Shown: piece after piece, positions 2,970-59,522 of the stretch
How positions within the stretch are numbered: the stretch's first letter is position 1
How the letters are laid out: every line of letters begins with the position of its first letter
Virus record (IMG/VR): IMGVR_UViG_3300018083_000001
DNA: 64,000 nt
DNA from: a virus
Direction: 5' to 3' (one strand)
Notes under the pieces: generated by a model
Told to the model about the DNA's origin: nothing
What the model saw: the letters and a program-made list of their open reading frames with translations, nothing else
Database searches by the model: none
Made by a program: the position numbers and the translations under genes

Positions 2970-2976
2970 GTGGTTC

Positions 2977-4120: not shown

Positions 4121-4172
4121 TTGACGAACTCCATGAGTTGGACGAAAGAAGGATAAAGATGAAGCGCGACGA

Positions 4173-4652: not shown

Positions 4653-4677
4653 CTAGTTTTCTCCTTCAAAGATGATT

Positions 4678-5663: not shown

Positions 5664-5667
5664 TGCA

Positions 5668-6690: not shown

Positions 6691-6955
6691 CGGTTTCTTC
6701 TTGAGTTGTATCTAACAAATTAGCAAGACGATATTGTAGCATGACGACAGCGCCAAGAATTAAACCAGCATTGCCGATTGTGTTCTCTGAAACGCAGCAA
6801 TTGATAGCCGAGTTTGGCTTTACATAGGCAATTGCCACTTCAGTTATATCTCCTGCCTTGGCCATCTTGAGAATCATCTCAAGCGTCTCAATCGCTGACT
6901 CGCGATCTGAGTCAATACGCTTCTTGAACTTTACAACCTTTGGTTTTTCTCTCAC
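6677..6955 (-). CDS. hypothetical protein
   Basis: 92 aa with a GTG start in a GTGA overlap with the upstream stop. Confidence 0.5.
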   Translation of the reverse strand: MREKPKVVKFKKRIDSDRESAIETLEMILKMAKAGDITEVAIAYVKPNSAINCCVSENTIGNAGLILGAVVMLQYRLANLLDTTQEETDGEG

Positions 6956-7305
6956 ATCCGCCCTCTACATGTCCAGACTGCTGTTGCTGGATCAGTTGAT
7001 ACTTCAAGAACCATAAATTCCTGACCGCCATTTATCGTAACAACATCTCCAACCTTAGGCATGACCGATATGCTACCAGCAAGGATCATGATCTTGCGTT
7101 CATTCTCCGCCACAAGGCCATCTGCGCGCAACGACATTGAATATGTTTCAACAAGTGCCTTACAAGAATGAGTCGCTGTTACAAATTCAATTGAATCGCC
7201 ACTACCAACAACCTCAGTATCCCGTCTTAGGATTGCTGGAAAGAACACGTCAGTGAACGCTTTGTTAATTTGCGAAGCCATAGCGGCAATCGGAGAAGTG
7301 GCCAT
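6952..7305 (-). CDS. head-tail joining / head closure protein candidate
   Basis: 117 aa. Size and position in the connector cluster fit. The call rests on weak sequence resemblance only. Confidence 0.4.
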   Translation of the reverse strand: MATSPIAAMASQINKAFTDVFFPAILRRDTEVVGSGDSIEFVTATHSCKALVETYSMSLRADGLVAENERKIMILAGSISVMPKVGDVVTINGGQEFMVLEVSTDPATAVWTCRGRM

Positions 7306-7306
7306 G

Positions 7307-7603
7307 TTATTTTGTCTTCACTTTGAGTTTGACAGTTTGATCCCAGGTACGTCCGCCTGTCGTCAAGATGCGATTGATCAATTTATAAGTGACACCTTCA
7401 GTACCGCCAGATAGCCATATCGTTGTCGTTGTAGCGGTAAAGCTATCGCTGTTCTTGACGAGGCCAACTGGAACGATCCAAGTAGATGTTTGAATTACAT
7501 CACCGAGTGTACGTCCCGGTTGCGTTGCATTTCCTGCCCAATTGAGACTATAATCGGCAATCTCATCCGGGTCTTTGTTATCCCACTTGCCTGATAATGC
7601 CAC
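7307..7603 (-). CDS. hypothetical small beta-rich virion-module protein
   Basis: 98 aa with a GTG start, directly downstream of the 1838-aa gene. Confidence 0.5.
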   Translation of the reverse strand: MALSGKWDNKDPDEIADYSLNWAGNATQPGRTLGDVIQTSTWIVPVGLVKNSDSFTATTTTIWLSGGTEGVTYKLINRILTTGGRTWDQTVKLKVKTK

Positions 7604-7610
7604 TGTCGTC

Positions 7611-10600
7611 TCACTGTTGTTGGATTACAGATGCCGCATCTTCATCAATTAACACAAGTGCCATTCGACTTTCTGCTATTACTAACACACTATGACTTTC
7701 AATCATCGGCAAAGCTATGGTACTTTCATCTAGTACATTAGCAACGTGATCGGCCGCAATGTCGCTTGGTACGATGATCTCAGAGAAGATTACACCAGCT
7801 TGCGCCGTTGCCGCAGCACCGATCAGGAAGCCCTTAACATCAAACCTAGTTAGATTGCCAGCTGACGCAGTGACGAATGAACCAAGGAGCCTAGCGCCAC
7901 GCAGAAGGATACCAGCTTGCGCTTGAACTTGTGCGCCTTGAATTGCGAACGCTGATACGCGAGCAAATATCGCACCGGCAGTAACTTGGACTTGTATCCC
8001 AGATAACACGGCAGTAATAGCCTGGGATACCGTAAACAATCCAGCGGACGTTGTAGCTTGTACACCAATAAGCGATACGGCTTTTGTAGTCGGTGCTGAT
8101 AGCGTTCCAGCAAAGGTAGTAACAAACGCGCCTTGTATATTGACACTTATTGTACTTGCCGCAGCCGATGTAATTGTTCCAGCGCTTGCGGCAACCTGTG
8201 CGCCAAGAAGCGCGAAGATATCAGAGACGCCAAATGATCCTGGCGATGCCGTAACTTGTGCACCAGTTAGCGCAACGACCTTGGCGACCAGCGCCGCCAT
8301 CGCGCCAGCTTGCGCAGTAGCCTCAACACCAATAAGCGTAGGCGGTCTTGCGGCAAGAGAAATGATACCTGGCGATGCCGTAACTTGCGCGCCTGGTACC
8401 GCAACATTAGCCGTGCTTGCGGTATTTACAACAAGCGAACCAATTTGCGCCGTAACTTGTGCGCCAACGAATGCAAAGACATCGCCAATACCGAATGTAC
8501 CAGCGGAGGCGGTAGTTTGCGCGCCAGTAAGCGCGACAAGTTTAGCGATTGAAGTTATTAATGTCCCAGCTTGCGCAGTAACAGATGCGCCAGTAAGGAC
8601 TTTTGTAACAGGCTGCGCAAGGACGCCAGCCGAGATAGTAACTTGAGCTCCGGTCAGCGATACAAAAGTGGTACTGACCGTGGTTGCTGTTATCGTACCC
8701 GCAGTCGATGTAACTTGCGCGCCAATCAAAGCGAACGTATCGCTCAACCTAAATACGCCAGCAGTCGTAGCCGCTTGCGCACCAGTAAATGTAACTGCCA
8801 CGGCTTTGGTAACAGAGAGGAGGCCCGGAGTGGCGGTGGCTTGAGCGCCAACGAGACCAACAGGCTGTACCTTAGCAACCGTCAATATACCAGGAGACGC
8901 AGTGCATAATGCGCCAGGTAGCGTTTTGCTAATCGTCTCTCTTATAGAACCAGCAGAAGCTGAAACCTGAATGCCTGGAACTGCAACATTGGTAACTGTC
9001 GAAACAGCCGAGACACCTTTCACCTCTACCCACGAGACATAGACCCGCGCCAACACAACAGCGAACTGGAAGGTTCCAGCAGAGAAGGTACAACCCGCTC
9101 CAGCCAGATTAGCGGGAGTGAATTTTAAAGTAGTCAGTGTACCGGCAGAAGCAGAACAGGACGCACCAACAAGCGGCTTTGCTTCCGTGATCGCCAGCGA
9201 TCCTGCCGAAGCAGATGCTTGCGCACCAGTCAGTGAAACAAGTCTAGCGGTCGTTGGAGCTATCGAACCAGCGAACGTAGCTACCTGCGCGCCGGTTAAG
9301 AAAACCCGCTGCTGCGCGAGCGATCCAGCCGACGCGGTGACAGACGCGCCAGTTAGATTTACTGAGACAGAGCTAACAGCAATCGACTTGCCGTCCCAGG
9401 TGGTATATCCGCTCGCTGGAGGGGCACCTAAGAACGTACCATCAAACTTTGCGTTGAACACCTCACCATTGAGGCGAAGATCAATAGCAAGCGACAACCG
9501 GCCACCGCCAAGCGCCGAGATGCTAAAAGTGTTCCAGGCACCATTCTGTGTGATGTTACGAACGGAAACAGTGGCGGCAGAAGTATCAGCAGAGACAGAG
9601 TACCAATCACCGGCAGCAATGACCTTGTCGTGTGTTCCTACGTTAGAACCGCCAACATAAACAGGTCTGCCTGAACCAGTCCAGAAACCGATGCTGTTGT
9701 TATCCCAACCTAAATAAGCAGCAAGTGGCGTTACCAATGCTGACGCATTCGCGACACCGATAGAACTTGAAGGACCACCACCACCGCCAGTGAATTGTAC
9801 CTCAGCATAAATCTTGGTAGTGCCGACCGCATTAAGAGTTGAGAATGCCAGCCTGTCAGAGAAGTCGCCAGAAACCATAGTCGCTGTCAAATAATTATTT
9901 GACAGAATGATAGTTGGGAACGTGCGATCCGGATTAAAGAACGTAGCAGGATACGCACCCAACGTCCCGGCAGACATCGTCACCGATGCACCGGGCAGAT
10001 TTACACCGCCAGCTATCGCTTTACCATCCCAAGTGGAATAACCACTCGCGGGAGGCGTCCCTAAAAATGCACCGTCAAAGTTCGCGGTAAACGCATCAAA
10101 TTGATTAGCAAAGGTGCTAGCAAAACAAATTTCACCACTGGTTATACTAGAAATGGAAACTGTAGCGGACCAGCTTCCAGCACCTGTGATGTTCCTGAAT
10201 TGAATTGTGCCTGCGATACGATCAACCGCAATACCAATCCAGTCCCCAGTTCCAACCGCTGGCGAAACAGTGATGCCAGCGCTGACGCCATTGTAGTACG
10301 CAGTAGCACCATATAGTCCAATTGAATCGGTGCCTTGACCGATAAAACCTGAACCATTTGTGACATCAAAAGTAGTGGTAGCAACGCCAACACCGAAAGT
10401 TCCACTCGCTGTATCAAGATGAACCTCAGCATAAACTTTCGTGCTGCCGTGCGTCGGTGTAGAAAGAACGCTCGCTAAAGTCCCTGCAGCATTAGGCCTT
10501 GTCGCTGTCAGATAGTTATTTGACAATACGAGGTCTGGAAACTTACGATCTGGATTAAGAATAGTGCCGGCATATCCACGGAACGTCCCAGCGGACATCG

Positions 10601-13127
10601 TGACCGATGCACCAGCAAGCGCCACGACCGGAATGGACCTGCCGTCCCAGGTGGTGTAGCCGCTGGCTGCCGGAGGTCCACCTAGGAAAGGACCGTTAAA
10701 ATTTACGTTGAATACTTCGCCTTGATTGAAGGTGGCAATTCCGAGCGATTGCTGAACGCCACTGAGACCAGCATGACCTACTGTCTTCCAGATGCCGTTC
10801 TGCGTGATGTTGCGGAAATAACAGCGACCAGAACCAGTATCAACTGCAATGCCGAACCAATCACCCGCAACAGTGTTCGTCTTATCAATCGTCCCGACCT
10901 GGGCACCATTGATGAAGATATTGCCAGCGACATATATGCCAACTGAATTATTGTCGGAACCTAAATAATTGGTTAATGCCGCCGAGGCATTTGCGATACC
11001 GACCCCATCACCGGAGAGGCCAACACCGCCGCCAGCCATCTGAGCTTCAGCATAAAACTTAGTGGTAGATGCATCATTGAGAATTGAAAGAGACAACCGA
11101 TAATTAGAGGTCGCTGAAGTTCGAGTTGCCGTCAAGTAATTGTTAGATAGAGTAATGTCCGACAACGCCGTGCGACTTGAATCGAGGTACGCTCCAGAAA
11201 TAGTCTGAAACGTTCCAGCAGACAGCGTTGCTGATGCGCCAGGAAGATTGACCGTGATCGTAGAAACAACCGAGGTCCCAATCGTGCCTGCCGACATCGT
11301 AGCAGACGCGCCAGGAATATTAATAAATGGAGAGATCGAAACCGACAATGCCTGAGCGGACGCAGTGACCTGCGCACCGATCAAGTTTGGCTTGGTCAAT
11401 ACCTCTTGAGCGTCTAAAGCACCGGCGCTTGCCGTGACCGAGATGCCGGGAACATTGACATTGGTCGTTGCCGTTATCGCGCGGATATTATATTCGTTAT
11501 ACTTCAGAGTGCCATTGTCGTTGACAATGTAGCCAACAACATAGTTACTACCGCGCGCATACATACTGCCGCTGGAGCTGCGCGACAGGCCAGCATCTGT
11601 GTTAGGAACTGTTCCAGCAAATGCTAATACTGGAGAACCAAACGTCGCGCCATCGTTCGATGATTTAATCGCGTAAAGGTCGCTATCCGATGAATTGCGA
11701 TAAGCAATAGTTACTTCATCGGTATCAATATCCACGCCGATGCGATGCGGCGTTGAAGCAGCCGCAATACTTTGATTTGCAGTAGTAAGCGTCGGATTAT
11801 CCGAACTGTCAAAATACACGGTCTGCTGCGCAGCACCGACAGAAACGGTTGCAACAACTTTGGTGGTACCTGACCGGTCGTAGCTAACAGCATCGCAAGG
11901 ACCACCCCAAGCTCCTTGCGATACCGCCGTATTCATCGTATTGGCGGCTGACAATGTCCTAATACTATTAACTGATGCGGCTGGCTGAAACAAAAAATGG
12001 ACTCTGTCAGCAGCACCCAAGACTGCTGTCGGAGCTGAAGTATCAATTGCAGTATTGCCATCAACCTGGGTTTCTGTAGACCAAGTGTTGACCGCTGTGC
12101 GGCGACGATAATAAATGCGGGCACGGAACGTGCCTGAAGTCTTGGTCTGCAAACCATTATAGAACGCAACGACCTCGCCGTTACCGCGAACAACAAGCGA
12201 AGCATTAGCATTAGCGCCAGAAATTTGACCAGCTACAGAACCCGCTGCTGAGACCGTTTCCACAGTAGCAAGAAAAGTATCTGTTAGCGCATCAAATGAA
12301 AGATACTTGACCGCTTGAGACGTTGACGCCGTGCCGTCTTGCACCAGCAAATGAACCGTATAGCCAACCTGATACGCATCAACCCTCAGGATCGCGGTAG
12401 TGAAGCCGGTCTTGGTAGTAACACTCGCCCACGATGTATCCGGCGCGGTGGCCTTGAACGCCTGCAGCGTCGTACCAGTCGTACCATCGCGGCCAAAGAA
12501 GTAATATTGATCTGAAGCGACCGTGACAGCCTTGTAATAAGTGATCGCATAGTCGAATGGCGCGGCACTCTGACCAGCTAGATTGGCAACGGTGTTGCTG
12601 CTGCCATCAAGCGGCGTATAAGCCAGACCGCCGGTAATGTCGTTGACTGCATTGCCGACAAAACGAACACTATTCGCAGCACCAGAAGTAAGGATATAAA
12701 ACACAAGCGCGTACTGAGTTAAATTTGTCAGCGCAACCGGAGTAGCGAAATGAAACGAAATAGTAGTATTGCCGCCATTTGCAGTTAAGGTGCCTGAGAC
12801 TAAATCACTGGTCCCCAACACTGTACCAGTAGGAGCACCGACCGATAAGCTTGCGTGGTCCCTGAGCTCAACGTAACAATTTGCAATAGGAACGGCGGGA
12901 AGGCCAGTCCCCGCCAGTATGATTGAAACATCACTTAAACTATAACCAGGCGATGGCGTAAATGTCTGAGCCGCGATGTGTGAAGTAAATGCACCAGCCG
13001 TCACGTTGTTAGTTGTGGTCGTTACTCCACTTTGACCAACCGCGCTATAAGTCCCAGCCGCCACCTTGAATGGCCCGGCTGGCGCAACCGCCGTCGAGAT
13101 ACCAGTGATGGTGACGGGCAGTGCCAT
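7611..13127 (-). CDS. giant multi-domain virion-associated protein (Asp-box region, 3 SPRY-like modules, C-terminal short-repeat fibre)
   Basis: Single 1838-aa ORF whose ATG overlaps the upstream stop (TGATG). It has an Asp-box (SSNDGATF). Three ~207-aa modules each carry LSNNYLTAT. The C-terminal part holds ~25 units of L(T/I)GAQVTASAG-type repeats. Confidence 0.85.
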   Translation of the reverse strand: MALPVTITGISTAVAPAGPFKVAAGTYSAVGQSGVTTTTNNVTAGAFTSHIAAQTFTPSPGYSLSDVSIILAGTGLPAVPIANCYVELRDHASLSVGAPTGTVLGTSDLVSGTLTANGGNTTISFHFATPVALTNLTQYALVFYILTSGAANSVRFVGNAVNDITGGLAYTPLDGSSNTVANLAGQSAAPFDYAITYYKAVTVASDQYYFFGRDGTTGTTLQAFKATAPDTSWASVTTKTGFTTAILRVDAYQVGYTVHLLVQDGTASTSQAVKYLSFDALTDTFLATVETVSAAGSVAGQISGANANASLVVRGNGEVVAFYNGLQTKTSGTFRARIYYRRRTAVNTWSTETQVDGNTAIDTSAPTAVLGAADRVHFLFQPAASVNSIRTLSAANTMNTAVSQGAWGGPCDAVSYDRSGTTKVVATVSVGAAQQTVYFDSSDNPTLTTANQSIAAASTPHRIGVDIDTDEVTIAYRNSSDSDLYAIKSSNDGATFGSPVLAFAGTVPNTDAGLSRSSSGSMYARGSNYVVGYIVNDNGTLKYNEYNIRAITATTNVNVPGISVTASAGALDAQEVLTKPNLIGAQVTASAQALSVSISPFINIPGASATMSAGTIGTSVVSTITVNLPGASATLSAGTFQTISGAYLDSSRTALSDITLSNNYLTATRTSATSNYRLSLSILNDASTTKFYAEAQMAGGGVGLSGDGVGIANASAALTNYLGSDNNSVGIYVAGNIFINGAQVGTIDKTNTVAGDWFGIAVDTGSGRCYFRNITQNGIWKTVGHAGLSGVQQSLGIATFNQGEVFNVNFNGPFLGGPPAASGYTTWDGRSIPVVALAGASVTMSAGTFRGYAGTILNPDRKFPDLVLSNNYLTATRPNAAGTLASVLSTPTHGSTKVYAEVHLDTASGTFGVGVATTTFDVTNGSGFIGQGTDSIGLYGATAYYNGVSAGITVSPAVGTGDWIGIAVDRIAGTIQFRNITGAGSWSATVSISSITSGEICFASTFANQFDAFTANFDGAFLGTPPASGYSTWDGKAIAGGVNLPGASVTMSAGTLGAYPATFFNPDRTFPTIILSNNYLTATMVSGDFSDRLAFSTLNAVGTTKIYAEVQFTGGGGGPSSSIGVANASALVTPLAAYLGWDNNSIGFWTGSGRPVYVGGSNVGTHDKVIAAGDWYSVSADTSAATVSVRNITQNGAWNTFSISALGGGRLSLAIDLRLNGEVFNAKFDGTFLGAPPASGYTTWDGKSIAVSSVSVNLTGASVTASAGSLAQQRVFLTGAQVATFAGSIAPTTARLVSLTGAQASASAGSLAITEAKPLVGASCSASAGTLTTLKFTPANLAGAGCTFSAGTFQFAVVLARVYVSWVEVKGVSAVSTVTNVAVPGIQVSASAGSIRETISKTLPGALCTASPGILTVAKVQPVGLVGAQATATPGLLSVTKAVAVTFTGAQAATTAGVFRLSDTFALIGAQVTSTAGTITATTVSTTFVSLTGAQVTISAGVLAQPVTKVLTGASVTAQAGTLITSIAKLVALTGAQTTASAGTFGIGDVFAFVGAQVTAQIGSLVVNTASTANVAVPGAQVTASPGIISLAARPPTLIGVEATAQAGAMAALVAKVVALTGAQVTASPGSFGVSDIFALLGAQVAASAGTITSAAASTISVNIQGAFVTTFAGTLSAPTTKAVSLIGVQATTSAGLFTVSQAITAVLSGIQVQVTAGAIFARVSAFAIQGAQVQAQAGILLRGARLLGSFVTASAGNLTRFDVKGFLIGAAATAQAGVIFSEIIVPSDIAADHVANVLDESTIALPMIESHSVLVIAESRMALVLIDEDAASVIQQQ
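7770..9370 (-). repeat. degenerate coding tandem repeats (18-24-aa units, about 25 copies, with a ~4-unit super-repeat)
   Basis: Read from the protein, e.g. VALTGAQTTASAGTFGIGDVFAF / VGAQVTAQIGSLVVNTASTANVA / VPGAQVTASPGIISLAARPPT / LIGVEATAQAGAMAALVAKV. This 4-unit block recurs at least 3 times. Coordinates are approximate. Confidence 0.75.
9370..11200 (-). repeat. three tandem ~620-nt coding repeats encoding SPRY/B30.2-like (concanavalin-like) modules
   Basis: The LSNNYLTAT anchor occurs near 11135, 10515 and 9895. Each module also has K.YAEV, GVG(V/I)A, NS(I/V)G and GDW.G(I/V)A(V)D ... RNIT. Coordinates are approximate. Confidence 0.6.
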
Positions 13128-13480
13128 CAGCCCTGCTCGATCAGTTCGCGACCCCGCTCAAAGATGCCCTTGGGCACCACACCATTCTTCACTGCCAGTT
13201 TCCTGCCTGCTCGGTCGCTGTTACGGAACATTTCTCGGCAATCATATTGACGACATTCGTAGGGCGCACGCTCGTGAATCGAGCAACCACGTTCATTGAG
13301 GTAACAACAATCTCCGTTCGGCAGTCGGTCGAGGATCGTGATGGGCTCTTTGTCCAGCCCGTCGCGGTACCATTTCGCGGTATTATATTGGCTGGCATCA
13401 TCGCCCATCTCCGGACGTATCACGGTCATCATCCGGCAGCACAGCTTGCAGGAACCACACGGGACAACATTGCGGTTCAT
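13127..13480 (-). CDS. YkgJ/UPF0153-type Cys-cluster protein (family that includes flagellin lysine-N-methylase FliB)
   Basis: 117 aa from ATG 13480, in an ATGA overlap with the upstream stop. Motifs are PCGSCKLCC (CxxCxxCC) plus CCYLNERGCSIHERAPYECRQYDC. Confidence 0.75.
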   Translation of the reverse strand: MNRNVVPCGSCKLCCRMMTVIRPEMGDDASQYNTAKWYRDGLDKEPITILDRLPNGDCCYLNERGCSIHERAPYECRQYDCREMFRNSDRAGRKLAVKNGVVPKGIFERGRELIEQG

Positions 13481-16400
13481 GATACTGCGCCGGTCCAAAC
13501 CCAGCCGGTGCTGGAACCATGATTAGCCGTCAAAGCGTTCCACTGTGCGGCGTTACCGTAAAAGTCAAAAAGTGGAGTCCCATAGGCGCTATGCGATGTT
13601 GTTGGATTGACCAGAACGCCCGTCGTAGGATTACAGAAATTATTCTGAACGGTTGAATTACCAACATCAGCAGTAACGCCAGTCCACATCGCAGCCCGAT
13701 ACATGAGGCCATTGAACGGGAATATACCTTCACGCGAGCCTATCGCAAATGAAGAACCTCCAGCCGTGAACTCAAAATCAAGCGTACTACCTGAAGTATC
13801 ATCGACACCGTCATTGACCCATGCACCAGAACCCTCACGCCACACGCGTATCTTCGACGTGCCATCAGCATCGAGTGAGATAAGAATGTTAGCTCGCTCA
13901 GCGCCAATCACCGTAGTGTTATTCATAATAATTGGAGCAGCGGCAGCGGTATCCCGCCAGATAGTGCTGAGTGAACCCGATAGTGCTGGATGTCGGCAAG
14001 TGCCACTGGTACCACCTAACTGTGATATTAGATAATTAGGGTCTGCGCCAACAACAGAAGCAAAATCAACGCTTATGAAAATCAACGCCGTTCTGCCATC
14101 AGTCGGAGCAAGCTGCGTGCTCTTAGTCAACCAAGTGCTTCCATTAAACGTCACGCCATTCTCGGTGAACTCTGCTCCTGTAATGCTGAATGAACCAGCA
14201 TAGGCTCTGGCTTGAACGCCACGCAGACCGCCAGTCGGCCAAAGCGGCTCAGCCACGTCATAGAACAATTTTGTCCAGTTGGTCGTATCACCCCATTTGA
14301 CGTAATCATAATTTGAAGAGTTCCAGATCGGCGGGGCTGGTGGACGAACTTGCCCTTCCTCATCAATCCATCGCTTCAGGTACACAAAGAACGAATCATA
14401 ACCCCAACGTCCAACTTCACTAGCCAGAACCAAGGCGATTGCTAATCCTGAACAGCTCTGCGAACCGATGATCTGATAAGTAGCCGAATTGTGATGTTGA
14501 TAAGCACTACCGCTAGCAGGAGCAGGCGAGAATGCCGAGCCTCTGCGAACTTGGTAATAACTTGTATTGTCTGGCTGCGTCGTCCACGGAGCAGTGACCG
14601 TTGCGACCTTGGTACTGGAGTTCCAGCCTGATGAAGCCACCGTCCGCATCTGTCCTTCACCCGTCCCGGACCAGATGAAGATATGATCACCAGCTATGAT
14701 GCTGGGCGATTTGTCGGCTTGCAGAGTAATGGTCGATGTACCACCCGTCTGCGCCTTGCCACCGCCGTCAGTGAACGCTTGAAACGGAGCAACGAGCAAC
14801 TGCTTAGTTGTGTCGTTATAATGAATCATCTCGGCCTGTTGTCCGGAACCAGTGCCGCCGGTGATCTCCATGTTGTAAAAAAGCGAAGGGTTTCCGCTAT
14901 CAGCGTTAAGTGAAGCTGCAAGCTGGATCGAATCAGCCGTCCCGCCCTGAGCTATACCATAGCCCTTAACTATTCCTGTCGGATCGGTAAGGCCATAAAC
15001 AACATCCCGTGTCTCATGGTTATCGGGATAAGTCTTTGGCGTTCCCAATGTCGGATTAGCCCTGGAGCCATACAGGTCTTCATGGGCGCCATACCAGAAG
15101 GCACCATCCTCGTGATAGAACTCTTGGTCAGGATAAATACCTGCAGTGACGTTTCCAGGTTTCACACACATCGCCGGGACATTAAGGAACCGTCCAGCAA
15201 AGAATGCCAAGCCCTTCATGCCTGGACCAAAACCACCCAGCGCGATATTGCAAGGCATATTCAGCGCGACATGCGAATAGGCCATCAAGCCATCACGCAC
15301 GATGCGGTTGATAAGTTCATTTCGGCTTGGGCTATCTGACAACGCCCCAAGAATCATTCTGTTGGTATTTATTGCTTGGTACGCTGGATAGGCAAGTTGC
15401 GATCTGACAGGACACCATGACGTGTAGTAAACAATCGGTCCAAATCTTACCAGAGGCCGTTCATGGAATGGGTCAAGCATGTTATACCCGTTCCAGTTTG
15501 GCTCCTCGTATCCGACTGGCCGCGTGACCGGCGTGTAAAGGCTATAGTTGATATCGCTAGTGGTGTATGTCGGCTTGCCTGGCGATGCGACATAAAGACC
15601 AGTCGGCTTAATCGCATTGGCTGGTGGAGCACTCGCCACTACAGTGATCTCAAGAATGTTATAGCAAGCGTTGTACGCGCCGCCGCTTTGTACATTGTCG
15701 CAGCCGCGATAAAGCCAAATTGTCTTTGGACTCCCGTCTGGATAATGATCAATTGTTGCTGGTAAACTTATCGACAAGGCTGCGCTATAGTTACTTCCAG
15801 GACCAACATTGCTAACAGGATGCACTCGATCATCCATCCCCTGCAACAAACCTTGGGGATCGACCATGACCTTGCCCTTGTAGGAACCAAGACCCACGTA
15901 AGCAAGGTCACCAGTTGGAGCGACGGCTCCAGTCGTATCAATACCAAAGTTCAACAACCTTGCGCCGCCAGAAGGCGCAACAACCCACGGGCTGCCATCG
16001 ACGTAGACGCCGGTTGTAGGTTTTCCGCTGAATACTGCAGTGATCCCATCACGAGAAACAAACGTGAATGAATCCCATAGATCGCACATCCAACCGTTGC
16101 CAGACCCACCGAAGCCCTTTATGTCACGGTGGAACTTGCCACTTCCGACAAAGGTCGAGAAGTCTGTGCTATCGTCGAAGTAACGACCCCAATTTTCCCA
16201 CATCTTGGGATCGTTTAGATATCTTCTGGCAAACGCTGCAACCGATCCGTTTCCGCCCCAGGAAGCTTCATCTCCCATGATGGCCGAGGCCATGAACAAT
16301 CCCTGATGGCCGTATTGATTGGCAGCCATATAAGTTCCAAGCCAATTCGGCTCATTTGGATCAAACAGTTGGTTATAAGTGCCCTCACGAGAATTTGGAA

Positions 16401-18378
16401 AGTCTGGATTCCAGATAATGAATTTGTCTGTAGTATCAGGATTAGCCGAGAAGGCTGAGTTGACTGTTAATACCCTTGTCGTTCCGTTATAAGCGGTGCA
16501 AGTTTTCTTCTCATAGCTTCCGTCTATGTAGCCATAGATGGTTCGACCAACGAACATACCATCAACATTAAACAAAGTCGGGTATAACACCTCGTTGACT
16601 ATCTTAAATGTTGTGGCGTTTGCTGAATTAACTTGAACAAAATCACAGTAATATAATGGCTGATCCTTGTATGGATAAACATCATAGGTCAGACTTGGAT
16701 AACGCGCCGTTCCATTGCCGCCCTGACCGGCTGAATAATCCTGGAATGCCGTATCCCCGAACAGCGGATAGTCTCCAGTATGCCCAGCAGGCATCGTGTA
16801 TGCCACTGACGGAGTAGCACACCAGAACGTGCGAGTCTGCTCGCCCCATTTGTAGACGGTTTCACCAAAAAGATTTATCTTGCCAGTGGAAATGCTTGCG
16901 GCATTCTTCATACCAGTGTCGTTGAACAACAAGCCGGCAAACCGAATGAGCCAAAGCGGAGTGATAAAAAAACCTGCGCCGCACGAGAACGGTGCAGCAC
17001 CAACAAACTGAGCTACTGCATAAGCATCAATAGCAATCTGGATGAGACGCTTCAGGAATTTGTCTCGATCAGAAACATCGTGCAACACGTAACAGGCCAA
17101 CTTGCCCCAGGAACCGCCACGGTCGCGTGGATACCAATTCATATTCATTGCCGGAGACAGCATAGTATAACCGTTACGAGCAGTGCGATGCGGGGTGATA
17201 AAGTATTGCAAATCCTCGCATGACTCTTTGCGCATCTGCTCGTACTGAGTCATGAACGGAATGTAACCGCCATCAGCACCGATATAAACCGAGTCATCAT
17301 CAATGTGCCAAGCGTCAGAAGTAATGCCCTTAGGATTAAAAGGCGAGGTCAGATTTGGCAACAGACTGGTATTCAATTCACTGAAACGTCTGCGGGTCTT
17401 TATTGCGCCGTAATAAGCCGGGCGAAATTCATCAGCCCACGGAATGTAGTTGACGACAGTCAAACATGCCATACGCATCAGAGTCTGAACATTTGACGTC
17501 TGTAAATTGTATTGCGTATCGTCCATAGAAACAGAAGAGACGAGAGAGTCGCCTGGGTGCAAAACCGAACCATTGGTGTGGGCGTTATAAGATGCGTCAT
17601 AATCGATGGCGTTAGCATACGGACCATGCGGCAATAAAGTAGTATCGTTCTCAGTCGCCCTTCCGTCATAACCCTGCTTCATGGTCGTAGTGTAGCCATT
17701 ACCATCCAGCGCCACTTCAACCATCGTGTTGAACGTCGGATTTATCATTCCGCCGTTCTTTGTATTGACTCCTGTTCCGCTTGGAGGAGTGGACATTGTC
17801 GGCATCGGCAGTGTCGTGGCCGTGTAGACCCAGACATCGCCGTTGACATAAGTGCCATTGGTCACTGTGCCAGGGAACGTCCAGGACATCCCATTCGGAG
17901 CAGTCACCGTCGTCGTCCCACCAACAGCCGGATTGGCCGTGAACTCAAGCTCAAGATTATTGAAATTGGTAATCGCTGCAAGTTGCGGGGCCGTCAATGT
18001 TTGCACAACAGTAGTGAATGTTGCAGAAATGCCGGTATGCGTCCAACTGACGATCTCAGTGCTACCCTGCATCAACCGAACGAGCAAATCTGCTACGCCA
18101 CCAGATCCTGATTTTGCGTAGCGATAGCTGACCGTGACCGGATCGACCAATGTCGTACCGCCAGCAAGATTACCGAGGCTGACTCGGCACGTATCATTAG
18201 CGGCTAGCGATGATTGGATATAATCAGCATCATTGATTGATGCCTCATCAATGTACGAGAACAAATTGGCGCCAGCATCCTGTCCAGCCCAAGTGCCATC
18301 GCTCACATCAGCATCAGGCCTCATAAATGCATAAATAATGCTGCTTCGATAACCAAAGAATATTTTAAACTGCGACAT
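13477..18378 (-). CDS. giant virion-module protein with C-terminal LamG/concanavalin-like domain
   Basis: 1633-aa single ORF. The C-terminal ~180 aa (TALIFISVDF ... RVWREGSGAWVNDG ... FAIGSREGIFPFNGLMYRAAMWTGV) fits the LamG_3 pattern. I did not recognise the central region. Confidence 0.8.
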   Translation of the reverse strand: MSQFKIFFGYRSSIIYAFMRPDADVSDGTWAGQDAGANLFSYIDEASINDADYIQSSLAANDTCRVSLGNLAGGTTLVDPVTVSYRYAKSGSGGVADLLVRLMQGSTEIVSWTHTGISATFTTVVQTLTAPQLAAITNFNNLELEFTANPAVGGTTTVTAPNGMSWTFPGTVTNGTYVNGDVWVYTATTLPMPTMSTPPSGTGVNTKNGGMINPTFNTMVEVALDGNGYTTTMKQGYDGRATENDTTLLPHGPYANAIDYDASYNAHTNGSVLHPGDSLVSSVSMDDTQYNLQTSNVQTLMRMACLTVVNYIPWADEFRPAYYGAIKTRRRFSELNTSLLPNLTSPFNPKGITSDAWHIDDDSVYIGADGGYIPFMTQYEQMRKESCEDLQYFITPHRTARNGYTMLSPAMNMNWYPRDRGGSWGKLACYVLHDVSDRDKFLKRLIQIAIDAYAVAQFVGAAPFSCGAGFFITPLWLIRFAGLLFNDTGMKNAASISTGKINLFGETVYKWGEQTRTFWCATPSVAYTMPAGHTGDYPLFGDTAFQDYSAGQGGNGTARYPSLTYDVYPYKDQPLYYCDFVQVNSANATTFKIVNEVLYPTLFNVDGMFVGRTIYGYIDGSYEKKTCTAYNGTTRVLTVNSAFSANPDTTDKFIIWNPDFPNSREGTYNQLFDPNEPNWLGTYMAANQYGHQGLFMASAIMGDEASWGGNGSVAAFARRYLNDPKMWENWGRYFDDSTDFSTFVGSGKFHRDIKGFGGSGNGWMCDLWDSFTFVSRDGITAVFSGKPTTGVYVDGSPWVVAPSGGARLLNFGIDTTGAVAPTGDLAYVGLGSYKGKVMVDPQGLLQGMDDRVHPVSNVGPGSNYSAALSISLPATIDHYPDGSPKTIWLYRGCDNVQSGGAYNACYNILEITVVASAPPANAIKPTGLYVASPGKPTYTTSDINYSLYTPVTRPVGYEEPNWNGYNMLDPFHERPLVRFGPIVYYTSWCPVRSQLAYPAYQAINTNRMILGALSDSPSRNELINRIVRDGLMAYSHVALNMPCNIALGGFGPGMKGLAFFAGRFLNVPAMCVKPGNVTAGIYPDQEFYHEDGAFWYGAHEDLYGSRANPTLGTPKTYPDNHETRDVVYGLTDPTGIVKGYGIAQGGTADSIQLAASLNADSGNPSLFYNMEITGGTGSGQQAEMIHYNDTTKQLLVAPFQAFTDGGGKAQTGGTSTITLQADKSPSIIAGDHIFIWSGTGEGQMRTVASSGWNSSTKVATVTAPWTTQPDNTSYYQVRRGSAFSPAPASGSAYQHHNSATYQIIGSQSCSGLAIALVLASEVGRWGYDSFFVYLKRWIDEEGQVRPPAPPIWNSSNYDYVKWGDTTNWTKLFYDVAEPLWPTGGLRGVQARAYAGSFSITGAEFTENGVTFNGSTWLTKSTQLAPTDGRTALIFISVDFASVVGADPNYLISQLGGTSGTCRHPALSGSLSTIWRDTAAAAPIIMNNTTVIGAERANILISLDADGTSKIRVWREGSGAWVNDGVDDTSGSTLDFEFTAGGSSFAIGSREGIFPFNGLMYRAAMWTGVTADVGNSTVQNNFCNPTTGVLVNPTTSHSAYGTPLFDFYGNAAQWNALTANHGSSTGWVWTGAVS

Positions 18379-18383
18379 AACAA

Positions 18384-18698
18384 TTAAGCCGTCGTTGGAA
18401 TTGCAAGGACAAAGTCAGCCCACTCCTTAGGAGACGTCTGATCAATGCCAACGATGAAGATGTTATCGGCATTCATCTCAGTACTCGTCAGCGCAATCTT
18501 GACCGACACTGAACTTGCTGGCTCCACCACAGGCAATGTTGCTAAATTGGTCAATGCTCCTCCGTCTTTTGAAATTTTCCAATCACCAGCTGCTAACGTT
18601 GGACTGCTTTTAAATGAACCAGGATTGGCTGGATCAACAAGTGAAATGTATGTAACAAAATCTTCATTCTTGACCGGAGGATTATATGGTGCTGCCAT
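18384..18698 (-). CDS. hypothetical protein
   Basis: 104 aa, tightly packed in the operon. Confidence 0.6.
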   Translation of the reverse strand: MAAPYNPPVKNEDFVTYISLVDPANPGSFKSSPTLAAGDWKISKDGGALTNLATLPVVEPASSVSVKIALTSTEMNADNIFIVGIDQTSPKEWADFVLAIPTTA

Positions 18699-18701
18699 GT
18701 T

Positions 18702-19826
18702 CTATAATCCCAGGTTGAATGACGGTCGCGCGGAATATCCTGCTGCTGGAATAAACACCGGCGATATATTACCAATTGCTCGTACATCATCAGTCCATGA
18801 ACCAGGCGAGCCAATGACTTCCTCTGTCCAGTAACAGTTGCCATTGAATGCCAAAGCCGCAGCTTGAACGTCGGCATCTATTGTCGCAGTTGTCAAATGT
18901 CTTATCTTGCGAGGAATAGAAAAGGCAAAAGCTGGAAGCATAGTGAACCGATACCAACGTCCAGCCGGTAGAAAAAGATGCGAGGCAGTTGAGAATACAT
19001 TCACCAATGGAACTGGAGCAGAACCACCAAGAGAGCCAGCTTGATTGGTATATGTTCCTAGCGTAGTACCTTTAGGCAAAGAACTGTCCGGATAAATCTT
19101 CCAAATGTGACCTTCATTACATGTGACGCCAGAGTCAGGATAACCACCCATACCAACCCAAACAACATCTTCATCTGGCTTAAAGCGCAATCCGCGTTCA
19201 TTCACATCACCAGTCGTTGTGACCATTTCATCGAGCAATGTGCCGAGCGGATGCAGCAATCCGGCATACTTAACGATCATCATCGTGCCAGTGAATTGAT
19301 TTGTTGCAGGATTGAATCCAGACGCACTATATGATCCATTAGCCGATGAAGCCAGTGGAGAGCTAACGCCATTGTCCCGGTTCATCGTGACGTAGTTCGT
19401 TGCGCCTCCATCTTGATCACCAATAACGAACGAATAAAGCTTGCCGGCTGTAACTGAAATAGACAATCCACTTTTCTTCACCCAACAATTAGCAGTCGTT
19501 CCATTAAGTGTGATGGTGAAGGCCGAACCAACCAACGTCCCAGGGACAAATGTGCTAGCCATTCCTTCCCTGATTTGACCATTGATCACTCCGTCCGTTG
19601 ATCCCCACGTCCCATTGTACGATGCAACGTAAACCCAGACGTCGGTCAGTGTTCCTGTCTCTTGAGCGAGAAACCAACCAGCAAAACAATTGCCAGAAGT
19701 GCCATACACAAACGCATTATTGAACGCCATTGTCGTCAAGTTAGGGACGCCATTGATTATCTTGGACGGCGACATCTTGTTGGCGCTACCAGTCCGCAGA
19801 TCACTCCATCGAGAAAATGCGGCCAT
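18702..19826 (-). CDS. hypothetical beta-rich structural-module protein
   Basis: 374 aa. The N-terminal jelly-roll-like pattern resembles the N-terminal regions of the two giant proteins. Confidence 0.65.
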   Translation of the reverse strand: MAAFSRWSDLRTGSANKMSPSKIINGVPNLTTMAFNNAFVYGTSGNCFAGWFLAQETGTLTDVWVYVASYNGTWGSTDGVINGQIREGMASTFVPGTLVGSAFTITLNGTTANCWVKKSGLSISVTAGKLYSFVIGDQDGGATNYVTMNRDNGVSSPLASSANGSYSASGFNPATNQFTGTMMIVKYAGLLHPLGTLLDEMVTTTGDVNERGLRFKPDEDVVWVGMGGYPDSGVTCNEGHIWKIYPDSSLPKGTTLGTYTNQAGSLGGSAPVPLVNVFSTASHLFLPAGRWYRFTMLPAFAFSIPRKIRHLTTATIDADVQAAALAFNGNCYWTEEVIGSPGSWTDDVRAIGNISPVFIPAAGYSARPSFNLGL

Positions 19827-19828
19827 GG

Positions 19829-20089
19829 TTATGCGCTCAATGTTATCGTGTAATTGGCAGCGGCATAATCGGATCGCTCTGTAGCGTTCTGCGAGAGACT
19901 AAACAAAGTGTAGCCACGTTGCGTCAACCAACGATGGATCATCGTGAACTGTTCGATGAACGGATGATTGATATCCGTAATGATGTCTTTCACGCTCAGC
20001 GTGGTCACTTCCATGTAGACCTTCTGGCCTCCGCCCATGTCAAAGACGGCCTTGCTGCCTTGGAACGTGAGCGGAGGAAGGGAAGGCAT
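19829..20089 (-). CDS. hypothetical protein
   Basis: 86 aa; the start is adjacent to the upstream stop. Confidence 0.55.
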   Translation of the reverse strand: MPSLPPLTFQGSKAVFDMGGGQKVYMEVTTLSVKDIITDINHPFIEQFTMIHRWLTQRGYTLFSLSQNATERSDYAAANYTITLSA

Positions 20090-20808
20090 TAGGCGATACG
20101 CAGGATGGCGTTGGAAGCGTCTGGCGTCGGGAACACGAAGGTCATCGTACCAGCCGACACTGTCTGTGTGCCACCAAAGTCATGCACCGACACCGAGCGA
20201 TTGATCGCTGAGCCACCGGCATTCGGCGTGATACCTGTCGCATGACCAAGCCGCACCGATGTATTGTAGATAATGCCGGCTGTGCATGAGATGGTCGCCG
20301 TCGTAAGAGATGGATCAGGCGAGAAGTCAGTGAATGCCGTGGAACCGGACACCGTTGGTGTCACATTGGTCAGCGCCATGCCGCCTGATGTATAGCCTGT
20401 GCCAGATGCCTCGTCCGTACCAACGTTTGTCGCTGTTGGACCTGCCGTACCAGGCGTACCAACGTTAGTTTGCGTGCCGTCGAAGGTTCGCGTTGGCGTC
20501 ACCTTGATCAAAAGCAACTTGAAGGCATCGCCAGTCATAGCAATAGTGCCGGTTGTCACAGTACCAGTGTGCGCCTTTGAAAGCGTCACCGCAGTACCAG
20601 AATCAATCGACGCAATGACAGCACCAGCGGCGATGCCGGTGCCTGTTACAGCCATACCAACGGCCATACCGGCAGTAGTAGCCAGACCAGTGAGGGTGAA
20701 CTGACCCGACGTGCCCGCGCCAGCCAAGGAGGACAATGGTCCATTGAAACAGTGCGCGGCTTGTAGCATCTCTTGCTTGTCTGACACGCAGACGGCGGTT
20801 GTTGCCAT
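20089..20808 (-). CDS. hypothetical Gly/Thr/Ala-rich structural-module protein
   Basis: 239 aa. Low-complexity G/T/A segments suggest a fibre or decoration-like protein. Confidence 0.65.
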   Translation of the reverse strand: MATTAVCVSDKQEMLQAAHCFNGPLSSLAGAGTSGQFTLTGLATTAGMAVGMAVTGTGIAAGAVIASIDSGTAVTLSKAHTGTVTTGTIAMTGDAFKLLLIKVTPTRTFDGTQTNVGTPGTAGPTATNVGTDEASGTGYTSGGMALTNVTPTVSGSTAFTDFSPDPSLTTATISCTAGIIYNTSVRLGHATGITPNAGGSAINRSVSVHDFGGTQTVSAGTMTFVFPTPDASNAILRIA

Positions 20809-20846: not shown

Positions 20847-21401
20847 TTACTTCTGAAGATACTTACTTATGTGCGCATGAACGTTAGCAGCGCCATGGTT
20901 AGCGCGGGCTTCGCGATAAGCCTTGGCTTCTGGATTGCTAGCGTTCTTGTCGGCATGATAGCTGCGCTCGATGTCCATTGCCGTGGCAAAGTGCGAGCCA
21001 ATCATACCAGCAAGCACAGCTTGGACTTCCTTCTTGGCGAAATGTTCGCCAAGGTCAACCTCCTTCTCACCTCCGGTATCAGGATCGGGTATTTTGATCT
21101 TGCCGACCTTCTTAGCAGCGGCAGCAACCTCAGCAACAACTGCGTCACAGTGTTCCCTTGGATCAATCGGTTCAGCGAGACGCTTCATGCCGCCTCTTTC
21201 GATCTTGCCGCGCTCACTGGTTTGTACATTCTCGTGGTGCGGTTGCAAGAGATCAAGAAGCGCCATTTCAAACTTGCGCGCGCCGACAGTGTCCGCGGCG
21301 CCAGAACTGAACACAGACTGGATGATTTGTCCAGCGGTGGTAACTGCCCACTTGTCAGCGGGATGCGGGCCACCATTGGTGACCATAATTCCTACTTGCA
21401 T
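20847..21401 (-). CDS. hypothetical protein
   Basis: 184 aa, with codon usage consistent with its neighbours. Confidence 0.6.
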   Translation of the reverse strand: MQVGIMVTNGGPHPADKWAVTTAGQIIQSVFSSGAADTVGARKFEMALLDLLQPHHENVQTSERGKIERGGMKRLAEPIDPREHCDAVVAEVAAAAKKVGKIKIPDPDTGGEKEVDLGEHFAKKEVQAVLAGMIGSHFATAMDIERSYHADKNASNPEAKAYREARANHGAANVHAHISKYLQK

Positions 21402-21544: not shown

Positions 21545-22258
21545 TTACTCCGTGACCTTGTTCGCATTCTTGTTGTGCTTCTTGATGGCCTTGATGATGT
21601 CTGCTTTCAAGTAGGCATCGCCAAGGTCGATGTTGTTCTGTTCGGCATGTTCCTTGAGCTCAGCGACAGTCATGCCTTCCAGATCTTCATCTTCACTGCC
21701 TTGCGCTTTGTTGGCGCCGGAAGCCGCACGGCCAGAAGCAACCCTGGCCCTGGTTGCTGTAGGATCATTCGGATTTGGCGGACGACCAATCGTCGCTGCA
21801 GCAACCAGGGCCTCTGTGGCTTCTTGGACCTTCTCATGGACCTCTGGACGCAAGCCGCCAGGCTTGTCTTCCATGCCAACTGATTCACGCATCTGACCAG
21901 CCGACTTGCCGATGAACGCGCCATGGTTGTTCTCGAACTCCGTGGCGTCCTTGTCAGGATAGCGGATGTCGGTTGGGGTTGGCTCACTGTAGGTGCCGGA
22001 CGGATTCTTGTCCGTTGCCACCAGCCCACCGCCTTCATTGACACCATAGTTGGCATCGATGCGGCGTTTCGCCTTGTGATCCTCGTAAGCCTGTCGCTCA
22101 GCATCAGTCATCGGCCGATCAGCGTCCGCTGATTTGGCATCTTTGTCGAGCTTGTCTTCATATATCTCGTGCTCGCCTTCTTTGTAATCTTCTTGGTTGA
22201 TGACCTTGTACTCGTTGCCGTGCTCGTCGCTGTGCTTGACTCGTACTGTTCCCGCCAT
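21545..22258 (-). CDS. hypothetical acidic protein with C-terminal HeH/SAP-like motif
   Basis: 237 aa, just downstream of the coat gene. C-terminal MTVAELKEHAEQNNIDLGDAYLKADIIKAI resembles HeH / Rho-N type helix-extension-helix motifs. Confidence 0.6.
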   Translation of the reverse strand: MAGTVRVKHSDEHGNEYKVINQEDYKEGEHEIYEDKLDKDAKSADADRPMTDAERQAYEDHKAKRRIDANYGVNEGGGLVATDKNPSGTYSEPTPTDIRYPDKDATEFENNHGAFIGKSAGQMRESVGMEDKPGGLRPEVHEKVQEATEALVAAATIGRPPNPNDPTATRARVASGRAASGANKAQGSEDEDLEGMTVAELKEHAEQNNIDLGDAYLKADIIKAIKKHNKNANKVTE

Positions 22259-59519: not shown

Positions 59520-59522
59520 CTC

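Follow-up and report, generated by a model that had tools for sequence, protein, structure and literature searches.

A putative neck-anchored fibre module with two giant proteins and a Gp77-type adaptor gene in the late operon of a metagenomic siphophage

The window analyzed here is a stretch of 64,000 nucleotides (nt) from IMG/VR virus record IMGVR_UViG_3300018083_000001, part of a contig of ~69.5 kb that was recovered from several metagenomes. Within its late operon, between the gene that follows the major capsid protein (MCP) gene and the gene for head closure protein Hc1, lies an insert of ~14 kb that runs on the minus strand from position 21401 down to 7307 and encodes proteins of 184, 239, 86, 374, 104, 1633, 117, 1838 and 98 amino acids (aa). 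A sequence-only reading of this DNA had described nine open reading frames (ORFs) between 7611 and 20808, and the sizes and coordinates it gave for the 1838-, 1633-, 374-, 239-, 104- and 86-aa ORFs were correct, all on the minus strand. That interval itself holds seven minus-strand genes, one of which (117 aa) had gone unnamed; nine are reached when the flanking 184-aa and 98-aa ORFs are added. We lean towards the view that the island encodes accessory fibres that bind or degrade glycans and are attached to the neck by the 98-aa protein, a member of the Gp77 family. In a broader sense, it is probable that they are adhesin or depolymerase appendages at the virion surface. The genes, in the order of the operon, are:

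20847-21401, minus strand: 184-aa ORF, the first inserted gene relative to island-less relatives; in locus L110, Gp77 is directly followed by a 61%-identical copy
20089-20808, minus strand: 239-aa ORF, homologue of gp59 of Roseobacter podophage CRP-603
19829-20089, minus strand: 86-aa ORF, overlapped by the 239-aa gene; 84% conserved in the variant L014
18702-19826, minus strand: 374-aa ORF, possibly two beta-sandwiches resembling domain D1 of the 1838-aa protein (hhalign against D1, probability 23-43%)
18384-18698, minus strand: 104-aa ORF; a 73%-identical copy lies beside a 529-aa ORF and Gp77 in L113
13477-18378, minus strand: 1633-aa giant, traced by homologue searches
13127-13480 (13498 with a longer start, 123 aa), minus strand: 117-aa Cys-rich protein, translationally coupled to both giants; near-miss to PF03692
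7611-13127, minus strand: 1838-aa giant fibre protein, directly upstream of Gp77; 55 homologues
7307-7603, minus strand: 98-aa Gp77-family protein (Pfam PF23148), the last gene of the module, just outside the interval of the sequence-only reading

The tight packing described earlier was confirmed, with overlaps of 1-4 nt or gaps of 2-38 nt at the junctions, and promoter-like or terminator-like sites between the island genes showed no excess over shuffled sequence in the scanned region. That the genes are real is supported by the 1838-aa product, which is identical on nine metagenome contigs, by 55 and 356 homologues of the two giants and by confident AlphaFold models. Pfam searches with whole proteins and eight sub-segments returned only SPRY, a sub-threshold CxxCxxCC match and Gp77, and no known decoration fold or family was found in the island with Pfam or PHROG. 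An NCBIfam search of the island proteins, a megablast of the island against 50,697 phage records, and a BLAST comparison for paralogy between the island genes all returned nothing.

The 98-aa product matched Pfam PF23148 (Gp77) with an E-value of 2.1e-20 and 73.5 bits (cut-off 27), residues 10-93 corresponding to profile positions 1-83 of 84, and its length is in line with a single immunoglobulin (Ig)-like domain of ~90-100 aa. It also matched PDB chain 8jou_D, which is gp77 of Ralstonia podophage GP4 (E 7e-4), and a phmmer comparison with the GP4 ORFs gave E 5.8e-8. According to the passages on GP4 in PMC11445570 and PMC12609058, which cite Zheng et al. 2023 (J Mol Biol) for this system (PDB 8jou/8jov), GP4 gp77 is a 93-aa Ig-like protein, 15 copies of which surround the dodecameric head-to-tail adaptor as a ring that carries fibres in two sets of five. 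Gene gp80, three genes upstream of gp77, accounts for ten chains in the same solved PDB entry; gp78 and gp79 have no PDB entry. There are 391 relatives of Gp77 in IMG/VR. By tblastn, a homologue was found in podophage CRP-603 and, beyond podophages, in Sphingobium phage Lacusarx, Microcystis phage Mwe-JY26, Gordonia and Rhodococcus phages and cluster L mycobacteriophages. The 104-aa protein (by hhalign), the 86-aa protein and P106B_15 were considered as second Gp77-like adaptors and rejected; so were, as Gp77 itself, the helical 91-aa ORFs downstream of giants in L094 and L095.

Gp77 neighborhoods were compared across 80 IMG/VR loci (L098-L176 and L016), and the size of the ORF ending just before Gp77 was scored in 77 of them, several of these ORFs being cut by contig ends. 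The median length of the upstream ORFs was 448 aa, against 172 aa for background ORFs. Lengths of at least 300 aa were reached by 59 of them, at least 500 aa by 32 and at least 1000 aa by nine, compared with 26% (at least 300 aa) and 12% (at least 500 aa) of the background (binomial P of 1e-20 and 4e-11, which are overstated since the loci are mutually related). A large ORF also stands beside Gp77 in GP4, CRP-603, Mwe-JY26 and Lacusarx.

These upstream ORFs are otherwise unrelated to one another but share their C-terminal ends. Among 40 complete ones, 141 pairs were alike in the last 100 aa versus 55 in the first 100, and 93 pairs were alike only C-terminally. The shared element consists of 3-6 tandem units of ~9-10 aa each, with the pattern E-x-R-x-h-x-h (h, hydrophobic). 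Two or more strict units were present in 22/39 upstream ORFs versus 16/485 control ORFs of at least 300 aa, and the motif is essentially missing from the remainder of the same proteins. The same tail ends the upstream ORFs of Lacusarx (L009, 12379-14010; 543 aa) and Mwe-JY26 (L010, 11486-13990; 834 aa), and two or three such units can be seen by eye in GP4 gp79. These patterns suggest that Gp77 genes mark fibre cassettes, and make the shared C-terminal tail an obvious docking candidate. Our literature searches turned up no account of the E-x-R tail, of the two giant families or of siphophages with a Gp77-type collar, and the Lacusarx paper gives no virion data on the neighbor of its Gp77.

Judged by gene order, Gp77 and its upstream ORF form a neck gene set in this siphophage lineage. 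The gap from Gp77 to the head-tail adaptor gene Ad1 was at most 10 nt in 7 distinct related siphophage loci (L106/107, L127/128, L138, L152, L158, L122/124). The next genes found were MuF and then tail genes in all of these but L122/124, with Hc1 between Ad1 and MuF in four of them, and the fullest order after Ad1 was Hc1, MuF, Ne1, Tr, tube, TAC and TMP. In the window, Gp77 is likewise found among neck genes, followed by Hc1 and far from the tip genes. Gp77 might instead link the giants to the tail tube or tip as tail-borne side fibres, as suggested by homologues after minor tail or fibre genes in mycobacteriophage Faith1, other cluster L phages and L048, and by a 137-aa ORF between the tube and chaperone genes here whose homologues occur near Gp77 in 13 loci. 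We consider this quite unlikely, given that Gp77 stands among neck genes, upstream of Ad1 or Hc1, both here and in at least seven related loci, and that the tip module, whose genes (DUF6950, Phage-tail_3) lie 3' of TMP and 7-20 kb from the island, is complete without Gp77.

The protein encoded directly upstream of Gp77, the 1838-aa giant, was divided into the following parts:

12528-13127, minus strand: residues 1-200, a 20-aa N-terminal peptide and D1, a beta-sandwich resembling a carbohydrate-binding module (CBM) (AlphaFold2 pLDDT mostly >80)
11469-12527, minus strand: residues 201-553, D2, a sialidase/lectin-type beta-propeller with one Asp-box-like motif, SSNDGATF (AlphaFold2 pLDDT 85-95)
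9378-11252, minus strand: residues 626-1250, three SPRY-like domains with a period of ~207 aa (Pfam SPRY, phrog_10080, internal BLAST)
7758-9377, minus strand: residues 1251-1790, an array of 21-22-aa repeats, L-x-G-A-x-V-T-A-S-A-G-x-L (motif scan, internal BLAST)
7614-7757, minus strand: residues 1791-1838, an acidic 48-aa tail with a degenerate E-x-[R/H/T]-x-h-x-h motif, a putative Gp77-docking element

All 55 homologues of this protein are 1000-2800 aa long and their common part is limited to residues 1-550. The AlphaFold model of D1-D2 (residues 1-640, 26 homologues) was confident up to residue 553 and all-beta. In Foldseek searches it matched, over both domains, GH33 sialidases with an N-terminal CBM (E 1e-9; sequence identity 8-15%), while the propeller alone fitted PLL/PHL lectins better than GH33 (target-normalised TM-score 0.65-0.70). 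No Pfam BNR or sialidase match was obtained with the whole protein or its sub-segments, and when the D1-D2 model was compared with the viral library in Foldseek, the matches were generic propellers only. Residues invariant across the family in D2 include R314, R343, R390, Y275, Y533 and E545. Column conservation was 0.90 at residues 1-20 and 0.3-0.5 over the rest of D1, so that the first 20 residues are the most conserved of the family; they are retained in members without D1, and could be a closing strand of the propeller or a docking peptide. Neither tblastn of the 1838-aa protein against the 50,697 phage records nor PDB sequence searches with both giants gave anything meaningful, and in a scan of a genome collection covering 185,579 species a D1-D2 relative, a distant one, was found in one metagenome-assembled genome only.

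Behind this head, Pfam SPRY (PF00622) matched one copy with E 4e-7 and 30.6 bits (cut-off 26.3), phrog_10080 matched with E 1e-18, and internal BLAST delimited three copies with E 1e-23 to 1e-40. A 21-aa repeat unit stands ahead of SPRY 2 (residue 839) and SPRY 3 (residue 1046), with another at residue 606 upstream of SPRY 1. Overall, at least 23 copies of the 21-22-aa motif lie between residues 561 and 1770, and Tandem Repeats Finder detected no DNA-level tandem repeat beneath them. In the tail, the relaxed motif occurred twice in the last 60 aa versus 0.13 times per 60 aa elsewhere in the protein, a 15-fold higher density, and was found in none of the other island proteins. From 8001 to 14000 the plus-strand AT skew is strongly positive (+0.10 to +0.18), unlike that of other minus-strand gene regions; this probably reflects the Ala/Gly/Ser/Thr-rich giants, those residues making up 48% of the 1838-aa protein.

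Giants with D1-D2 abut Gp77 on its upstream side in L098 and L100, the L100 fibre ORF (2549-8396) being 1854 aa long with two tandem propellers. In L109, L116 and L120 the D1-D2 region lies 1.7-1.9 kb upstream of Gp77, and an ORF scan found either no large ORF or none at all abutting Gp77. Other members of the family end in a PGSYPGT...W-RRAA tail or in what by eye resembles the second half of a 130-aa module that is also part of the 1633-aa protein (below), which suggests alternative docking ends and a distal N-terminal head. In L095, a contig of 98 kb with a D1-D2 giant, two proteins of the GP4 Gp80 family (fibre I) are encoded at most 7 kb upstream (2988-5078), a connection of the giant family with further fibre parts of the GP4 type in a case where no Gp77 was seen nearby.

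Giant size, a location beside head genes and a MuF-family gene nearby would also be expected of internal proteins that are ejected, like the virion RNA polymerase (vRNAP) of N4, T7 gp14-16 or the DarB-like protein of GP4, and the sequence-only reading had named ejection as one option. We regard it as highly improbable. No transmembrane segment was predicted (maximum 19-residue hydropathy 1.75), Pfam and PHROG gave no polymerase, transglycosylase, other lytic or peptidase domain, and the folds that were recognized are of lectin, propeller and repeat types, in a family whose far ends are hypervariable as in receptor-binding proteins.

The second giant, of 1633 aa, has a different architecture:

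17929-18327, minus strand: residues 18-150, a mobile 130-aa module (RPDADVSDG-W...QTLTAPQ..AITNF), recognized by its recurrence
16054-17922, minus strand: residues 153-775, domain A, a paralogue of domain B (P0002-P0007 at 44-55% identity)
14239-16068, minus strand: residues 771-1380, domain B (AlphaFold2 pLDDT mostly 85-98 over ~610 residues)
13480-14175, minus strand: residues 1402-1633, a C-terminal domain, LamG-like by eye only, common to P0069 (E 7e-64; low-confidence AlphaFold2 model)

Sequence searches of Pfam, PHROG, NCBIfam and the PDB gave no match to the 1633-aa protein, nor Pfam to its C-terminal domain; its homologues numbered 11 in a word-indexed search and 356 in an exhaustive HMMER search. 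In a joint alignment, domain A had motifs in common with the domain-B homologues, each domain spanning ~620 aa. Domain B was modelled as a mixed alpha/beta structure comprising a beta-sandwich, a helical core with long helices, and inserted small beta-barrels; the description of the giants as beta-rich thus fits the N-terminus of the 1838-aa protein and not this domain. Foldseek returned local matches only, among them 138 columns of a virion chain of RcGTA and KOW/SH3-like barrels. The many invariant charged residues of the core are compatible with an enzyme. Homologues of the core carry BACON_2, LamG, PKD, fn3, cadherin, Big_5 and type IX secretion system (T9SS) sorting domains, accessory domains that point to an extracellular, glycan-related role, and relatives of domain B include type IX-secreted cellular proteins.

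The 130-aa module recurs in P0005/8/9/10, in a pair of ORFs of L095 and within two neighboring giants of L007 whose genes precede Gp77 and Ad1, and its second half (about residues 112-147) forms the C-terminal end of seven D1-D2 giants, as judged by eye from the pattern of their last 70 residues. Homologues of both giants occur in the same order on a third contig. The earlier suggestion of modular shuffling is strongly supported at the level of domains. The observation on which it had been based, a similar N-terminus in the three largest proteins, was not reproduced: BLAST gave nothing, and hhalign gave a probability of 0.4% for the N-terminal module of the 1633-aa protein against D1. What is left is a weak likeness of D1 to the second half of the 374-aa protein (probability 23-43%, E 2e-4 to 9e-4).

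Between the giants, the 117-aa protein matched PF03692 (CxxCxxCC/YkgJ-type) with E 4.9e-4 and 21.2 bits, below the cut-off of 23; it has nine Cys and a stretch CGSCKLCC. A homologue precedes the D1-D2 giant in each of L094, L095, L096 (E 1e-40 to 1e-46) and L109 (74% identical), directly or, in L094 and L095, with an extra ORF of 52-55 aa between the two genes. Since they are adjacent in at least five otherwise different phage contigs, the Cys-rich gene and the D1-D2 giant form a conserved pair.

Among the smaller genes, the 239-aa product is related to CRP-603 gp59 (phmmer E 5.6e-22, 46% identity), whose gene follows the coat gene and precedes a fibre gene and Gp77, and a 72%-identical copy lies beside Gp77 in L110. 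The 239-, 184- and 104-aa proteins thus recur beside Gp77 in other arrangements, in L110, L113 and CRP-603. Equating the 239-aa protein with GP4 fibre I, Gp80 (PF23140), was rejected, as Pfam gave no match and hhalign of the protein together with CRP-603 gp59 against a Gp80 alignment gave a probability of 0.5%. The 374-aa protein had only three homologues in 5.8 billion proteins, the 86-aa ORF had no homologue beyond L014, and the 104-aa protein had no family match in Pfam, PHROG or NCBIfam.

Outside the island, the 137-aa ORF (3710-4120, minus strand), between the major tail protein and tail chaperone genes, has homologues (39-58% identical) downstream of Gp77 in 13/80 of the IMG/VR loci, a few genes off or less; their distance from Gp77 is ~30-360 nt in most and 2.8-4.9 kb in two. 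It had no match in Pfam, PHROG or the PDB, and its resemblance to beta-tulip decoration proteins is by eye only, without such support. Possibly it is one more component of the Gp77 system, encoded away from the island.

Relatives of the phage backbone were collected by an MCP-based search of IMG/VR, followed by tblastn mapping of the loci. In the closest ones (L017, MCP 78% identical; L020, 72%; and L039), MCP, a 237-like gene, Ad1, Hc1 and MuF follow one another in ~2.5 kb without the island, a synteny which bears out that the usual order is interrupted in the window. As Gp77 is missing from these three backbones together with the island, the module appears to be optional. The only backbone relative bearing the island was the 95% variant L014, and the 184-aa ORF had no counterpart in L015-L023. 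The site from MCP to Ad1 is a hotspot, in that L021 and Rhizobium phage P106B carry ~4-6 kb of different, unrelated cargo there:

6415-11008 of P106B (L002): cargo including two SGNH/GDSL esterase-like proteins
9200-15100 of L021: cargo with ORFs on both strands

Such cargo, SGNH esterases included, together with the homologues of the 1633-aa core among T9SS-secreted cellular proteins, would suit another explanation, in which the island is a moron in a variable hotspot and its products act as enzymes or adhesins that are soluble or released, such as matrix depolymerases set free when the cell lyses. This is very unlikely in our view because the genes are translationally coupled within a morphogenesis operon and lack a promoter or terminator of their own, because the module ends in a structural adaptor gene, and because a fibre-like repeat shaft and a shared C-terminal tail argue for assembly into a particle. 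An optional, horizontally exchanged fibre module is the most economical model.

In the window, Ad1 is displaced to a position between the portal and scaffold genes; relatives have it after the post-MCP 237-like gene or directly after Gp77, and the island fills its usual place. The island had been placed between the capsid and the connector genes, which is right for Hc1, the gene after it, and not for Ad1, which lies upstream.

Two loci from one sample, L014 (which ends at residue 258 of the 1838-aa homologue) and L098 (which starts at residue 660), look like halves of one 95% variant, both breaking inside the giant fibre gene. Between the window and this variant the 1838-aa gene is the most diverged, with 69-73% identity against 84-100% for the other genes; the fastest divergence between two near-identical phages is as expected for a host-contact protein. 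The pair of fibre and Gp77 genes is also mobile within head modules, lying upstream of scaffold and MCP in L016 (156-2651), and in L110 the order is Gp77, a 184-like gene, a 239-like gene and a protein with 21-aa repeats.

The position of the island bears on where the appendages would sit. The sequence-only reading had suggested head fibres or filaments, next to ejected proteins. The appendage part of that proposal is supported, and the site appears to be the neck, as a collar at the portal vertex, rather than the capsid shell, since the island ends in Gp77 and Gp77 abuts Ad1 in related siphophages. Fibres or decoration borne by the capsid, Hoc-like or similar to the RcGTA head spike and with Gp77 as a capsid-side adaptor, would account for a module that comes right after MCP and the conserved 237-aa gene, for the homology of the 239-aa protein to the post-coat gene of CRP-603, for the D1-D2 giants of L094-L096 that lie a few genes past the portal without Gp77, and for the fibre and Gp77 genes upstream of scaffold and MCP in L016. 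We judge this unlikely: besides the Gp77-Ad1 junctions and the lack of Pfam or PHROG decoration matches, the sole solved Gp77 ring, as presented in the sections of PMC11445570 on GP4, is on the adaptor and not on the shell.

Every gene from 555 to 31695 is on the minus strand. In family searches, the order before the island was a NusG-like gene, a small ORF, the terminase gene TerL, portal, Ad1, a 70-aa ORF, scaffold, MCP and the 237-aa gene. After it come Hc1, a 92-aa ORF, a MuF-like gene, the tail completion gene Ne1, the tail terminator, the major tail protein, the 137-aa ORF, the tail chaperones and the tape measure gene. The flanking structural genes are:

27072-28322, minus strand: TerL
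25558-27069, minus strand: portal
24855-25415, minus strand: head-tail adaptor Ad1 (phrog_477, E 2.8e-29; Pfam DnaT_2, PF20557, E 1.7e-29; matches P106B Ad1)
23588-24403, minus strand: scaffold
22343-23494, minus strand: MCP
21545-22258, minus strand: 237-aa protein with a Rho_N/LEM-like C-terminal motif, directly after MCP
6952-7305, minus strand: head closure Hc1, the gene after Gp77 (phrog_161, E 4.3e-10)

The post-MCP position of the 237-aa gene is kept in nine related loci, and a LEM-like gene occupies the same place in Acinetobacter phage qsb1. A NusG-domain protein (28704-29204, minus strand; PF02357, E 1.5e-13), upstream of the terminase, heads the long late operon and could be a phage-encoded processivity factor for an operon with 5-kb genes.

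On the parent contig the tape measure gene is followed by a lambda-like tip, with genes of 213, 198 and 134 aa including DUF6950 and then a 1039-aa gpJ-like gene, so the island products are most likely additional appendages rather than a standard tip or baseplate module, in agreement with the initial proposal. Canonical fibres are encoded elsewhere, as had been stated, by 497-aa and 464-aa genes at 61100-63987. Within 57871-63987 (minus strand), the 497-aa protein has a tail-fibre-like N-terminus (phrog_24607, E 1e-9), the N-terminus of the 464-aa protein is weakly pectate-lyase-like (E 4e-4, short of the cut-off), and the third gene specifies a 401-aa Amidase_3 endolysin. From these three genes, the ordinary fibre and lysis functions appear to be encoded away from the island.

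Taken together, the arguments for neck-anchored, glycan-active fibres are the Gp77 gene and its neighborhood on one side, and on the other the CBM, propeller and SPRY folds of the 1838-aa protein with the BACON, LamG, PKD and T9SS domains in homologues of the 1633-aa protein, which point to adhesins or depolymerases. Several observations pull the other way. The E-x-R motif is only weakly represented in the tail of the 1838-aa protein, and the D1-D2 giants of L094 and L095 have no Gp77 within 10 kb. The adaptor family differs, being SU10_adaptor (PF24175) in GP4 and CRP-603 and DnaT_2 (PF20557/phrog_477) in the window, and the ring location is an extrapolation by analogy from GP4 alone. Cluster L mycobacteriophages have their Gp77 homologue after minor tail genes, from which position the family may also serve at other sites. 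Domain B, finally, had no Foldseek match in the PDB at E<1e-3, so that its core fold has no solved relative.

In the mechanism that we propose, 21401-7307 would be an accessory fibre module inserted into the head-to-neck part of the late operon in a siphophage with a lambda-like tip. Following the example of podophage GP4, the Gp77-type Ig-like protein would ring Ad1 at the portal vertex, and the 1838-aa protein would dock on this ring by its C-terminal E-x-R/H-x-h-x-h tail. Its repeat shaft would project outwards, carrying the three SPRY domains and, distally, the CBM-like domain and the sialidase/lectin-like propeller. The 1633-aa protein, with two paralogous enzyme-like domains and the mobile module, may form another fibre or branch off the same appendage, the 374-, 239-, 104-, 86- and 184-aa proteins may be further fibre, branch or linker parts, and the 117-aa Cys-rich protein may act as an assembly or maturation factor of the 1838-aa protein. 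The predicted function is a reversible, multivalent binding, and possibly cleavage, of polysaccharide of the host surface or matrix, which would keep the virion close to the cell until the receptor is engaged by the tail tip.

Appendages of this kind, neck-anchored accessory fibres, are already known; what is attached here is two uncharacterized domain families. The only family to which the module belongs is that of Gp77, and its likeness to other collars is one of working. With GP4 it has in common a homologous adaptor of 93-98 aa and fibre genes clustered around it, between coat and adaptor genes. The phage differs in being a long-tailed siphophage with a lambda-like tip where GP4 is a podophage, and in its fibres, which exceed those of GP4 4-12-fold in size and are made of unrelated domains; searches for a Gp80 homologue in the island gave none. 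In the collar-whisker assemblies of myophages Bas63 and Sf14 and in the 15:12 collar of the N4-like DEV, a small Ig-like ring round the connector carries fibres via an extended terminal peptide (PMC12609058, PMC11445570). The working principle is the one proposed here, a likeness that does not come from sequence comparison; however, those whiskers are short, and in Bas63 it is the collar protein that provides the attachment, by an N-terminal extension; the attachment proposed here is by the C-terminal tail of the fibre.

The neck passage structure (NPS) of lactococcal 936 and P335 siphophages is an optional neck collar whose fibres bear carbohydrate-binding or glycan-hydrolase-like modules at their ends and serve in ancillary host binding (PMC6669499). 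Like the module as proposed here, it is a siphophage neck collar present in some members of a lineage only. The NPS is, however, a single protein of 500-900 aa, variable at its C-terminus and with a ring domain of BppU type at its N-terminus, in contrast to the separate Gp77 ring proposed here; the conserved and variable ends appear reversed in the island fibre, and no BppU_N match was found in the island proteins with Pfam. In the whiskered Alteromonas siphophage R7M, many fibres at the head-tail interface were attributed to a gene of the head-tail module (PMC8265664); the candidate there is a single abundant small protein, and its likeness to the island is by description. At the level of folds, GH33 exo-sialidases with an N-terminal CBM and PLL/PHL lectins share the beta-sandwich and propeller of residues 1-553 of the 1838-aa protein, with its one Asp-box-like motif, and differ by the low identity and the missing BNR/sialidase match given above.

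We suggest, tentatively, a wider generalization: that rings of Gp77 type are a general, hitherto unrecognised docking platform in long- and short-tailed phages which takes interchangeable fibres through the E-x-R tail, and that it bears here two giant glyco-active fibres of 1.6-1.8 thousand residues, one built on a domain without a solved relative and the other with a Cys-rich metal-binding helper. If this holds, a symmetry-mismatched fibre collar that has been solved in one podophage would be a widespread, exchangeable host-recognition module, with 391 IMG/VR relatives, many of them in siphophage neck operons. It would give a cargo rule for unannotated genomes, namely a large ORF with an E-x-R tail directly upstream of a ~95-aa Gp77 gene, so that receptor-binding proteins and depolymerases of metagenomic phages could be predicted better. 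Two uncharacterized domain families, the A/B core of the 1633-aa protein and the D1-D2 head, would be flagged as candidates for new glycan-active folds, and the Gp77 platform would offer a plug-in site for engineering added binding specificities.

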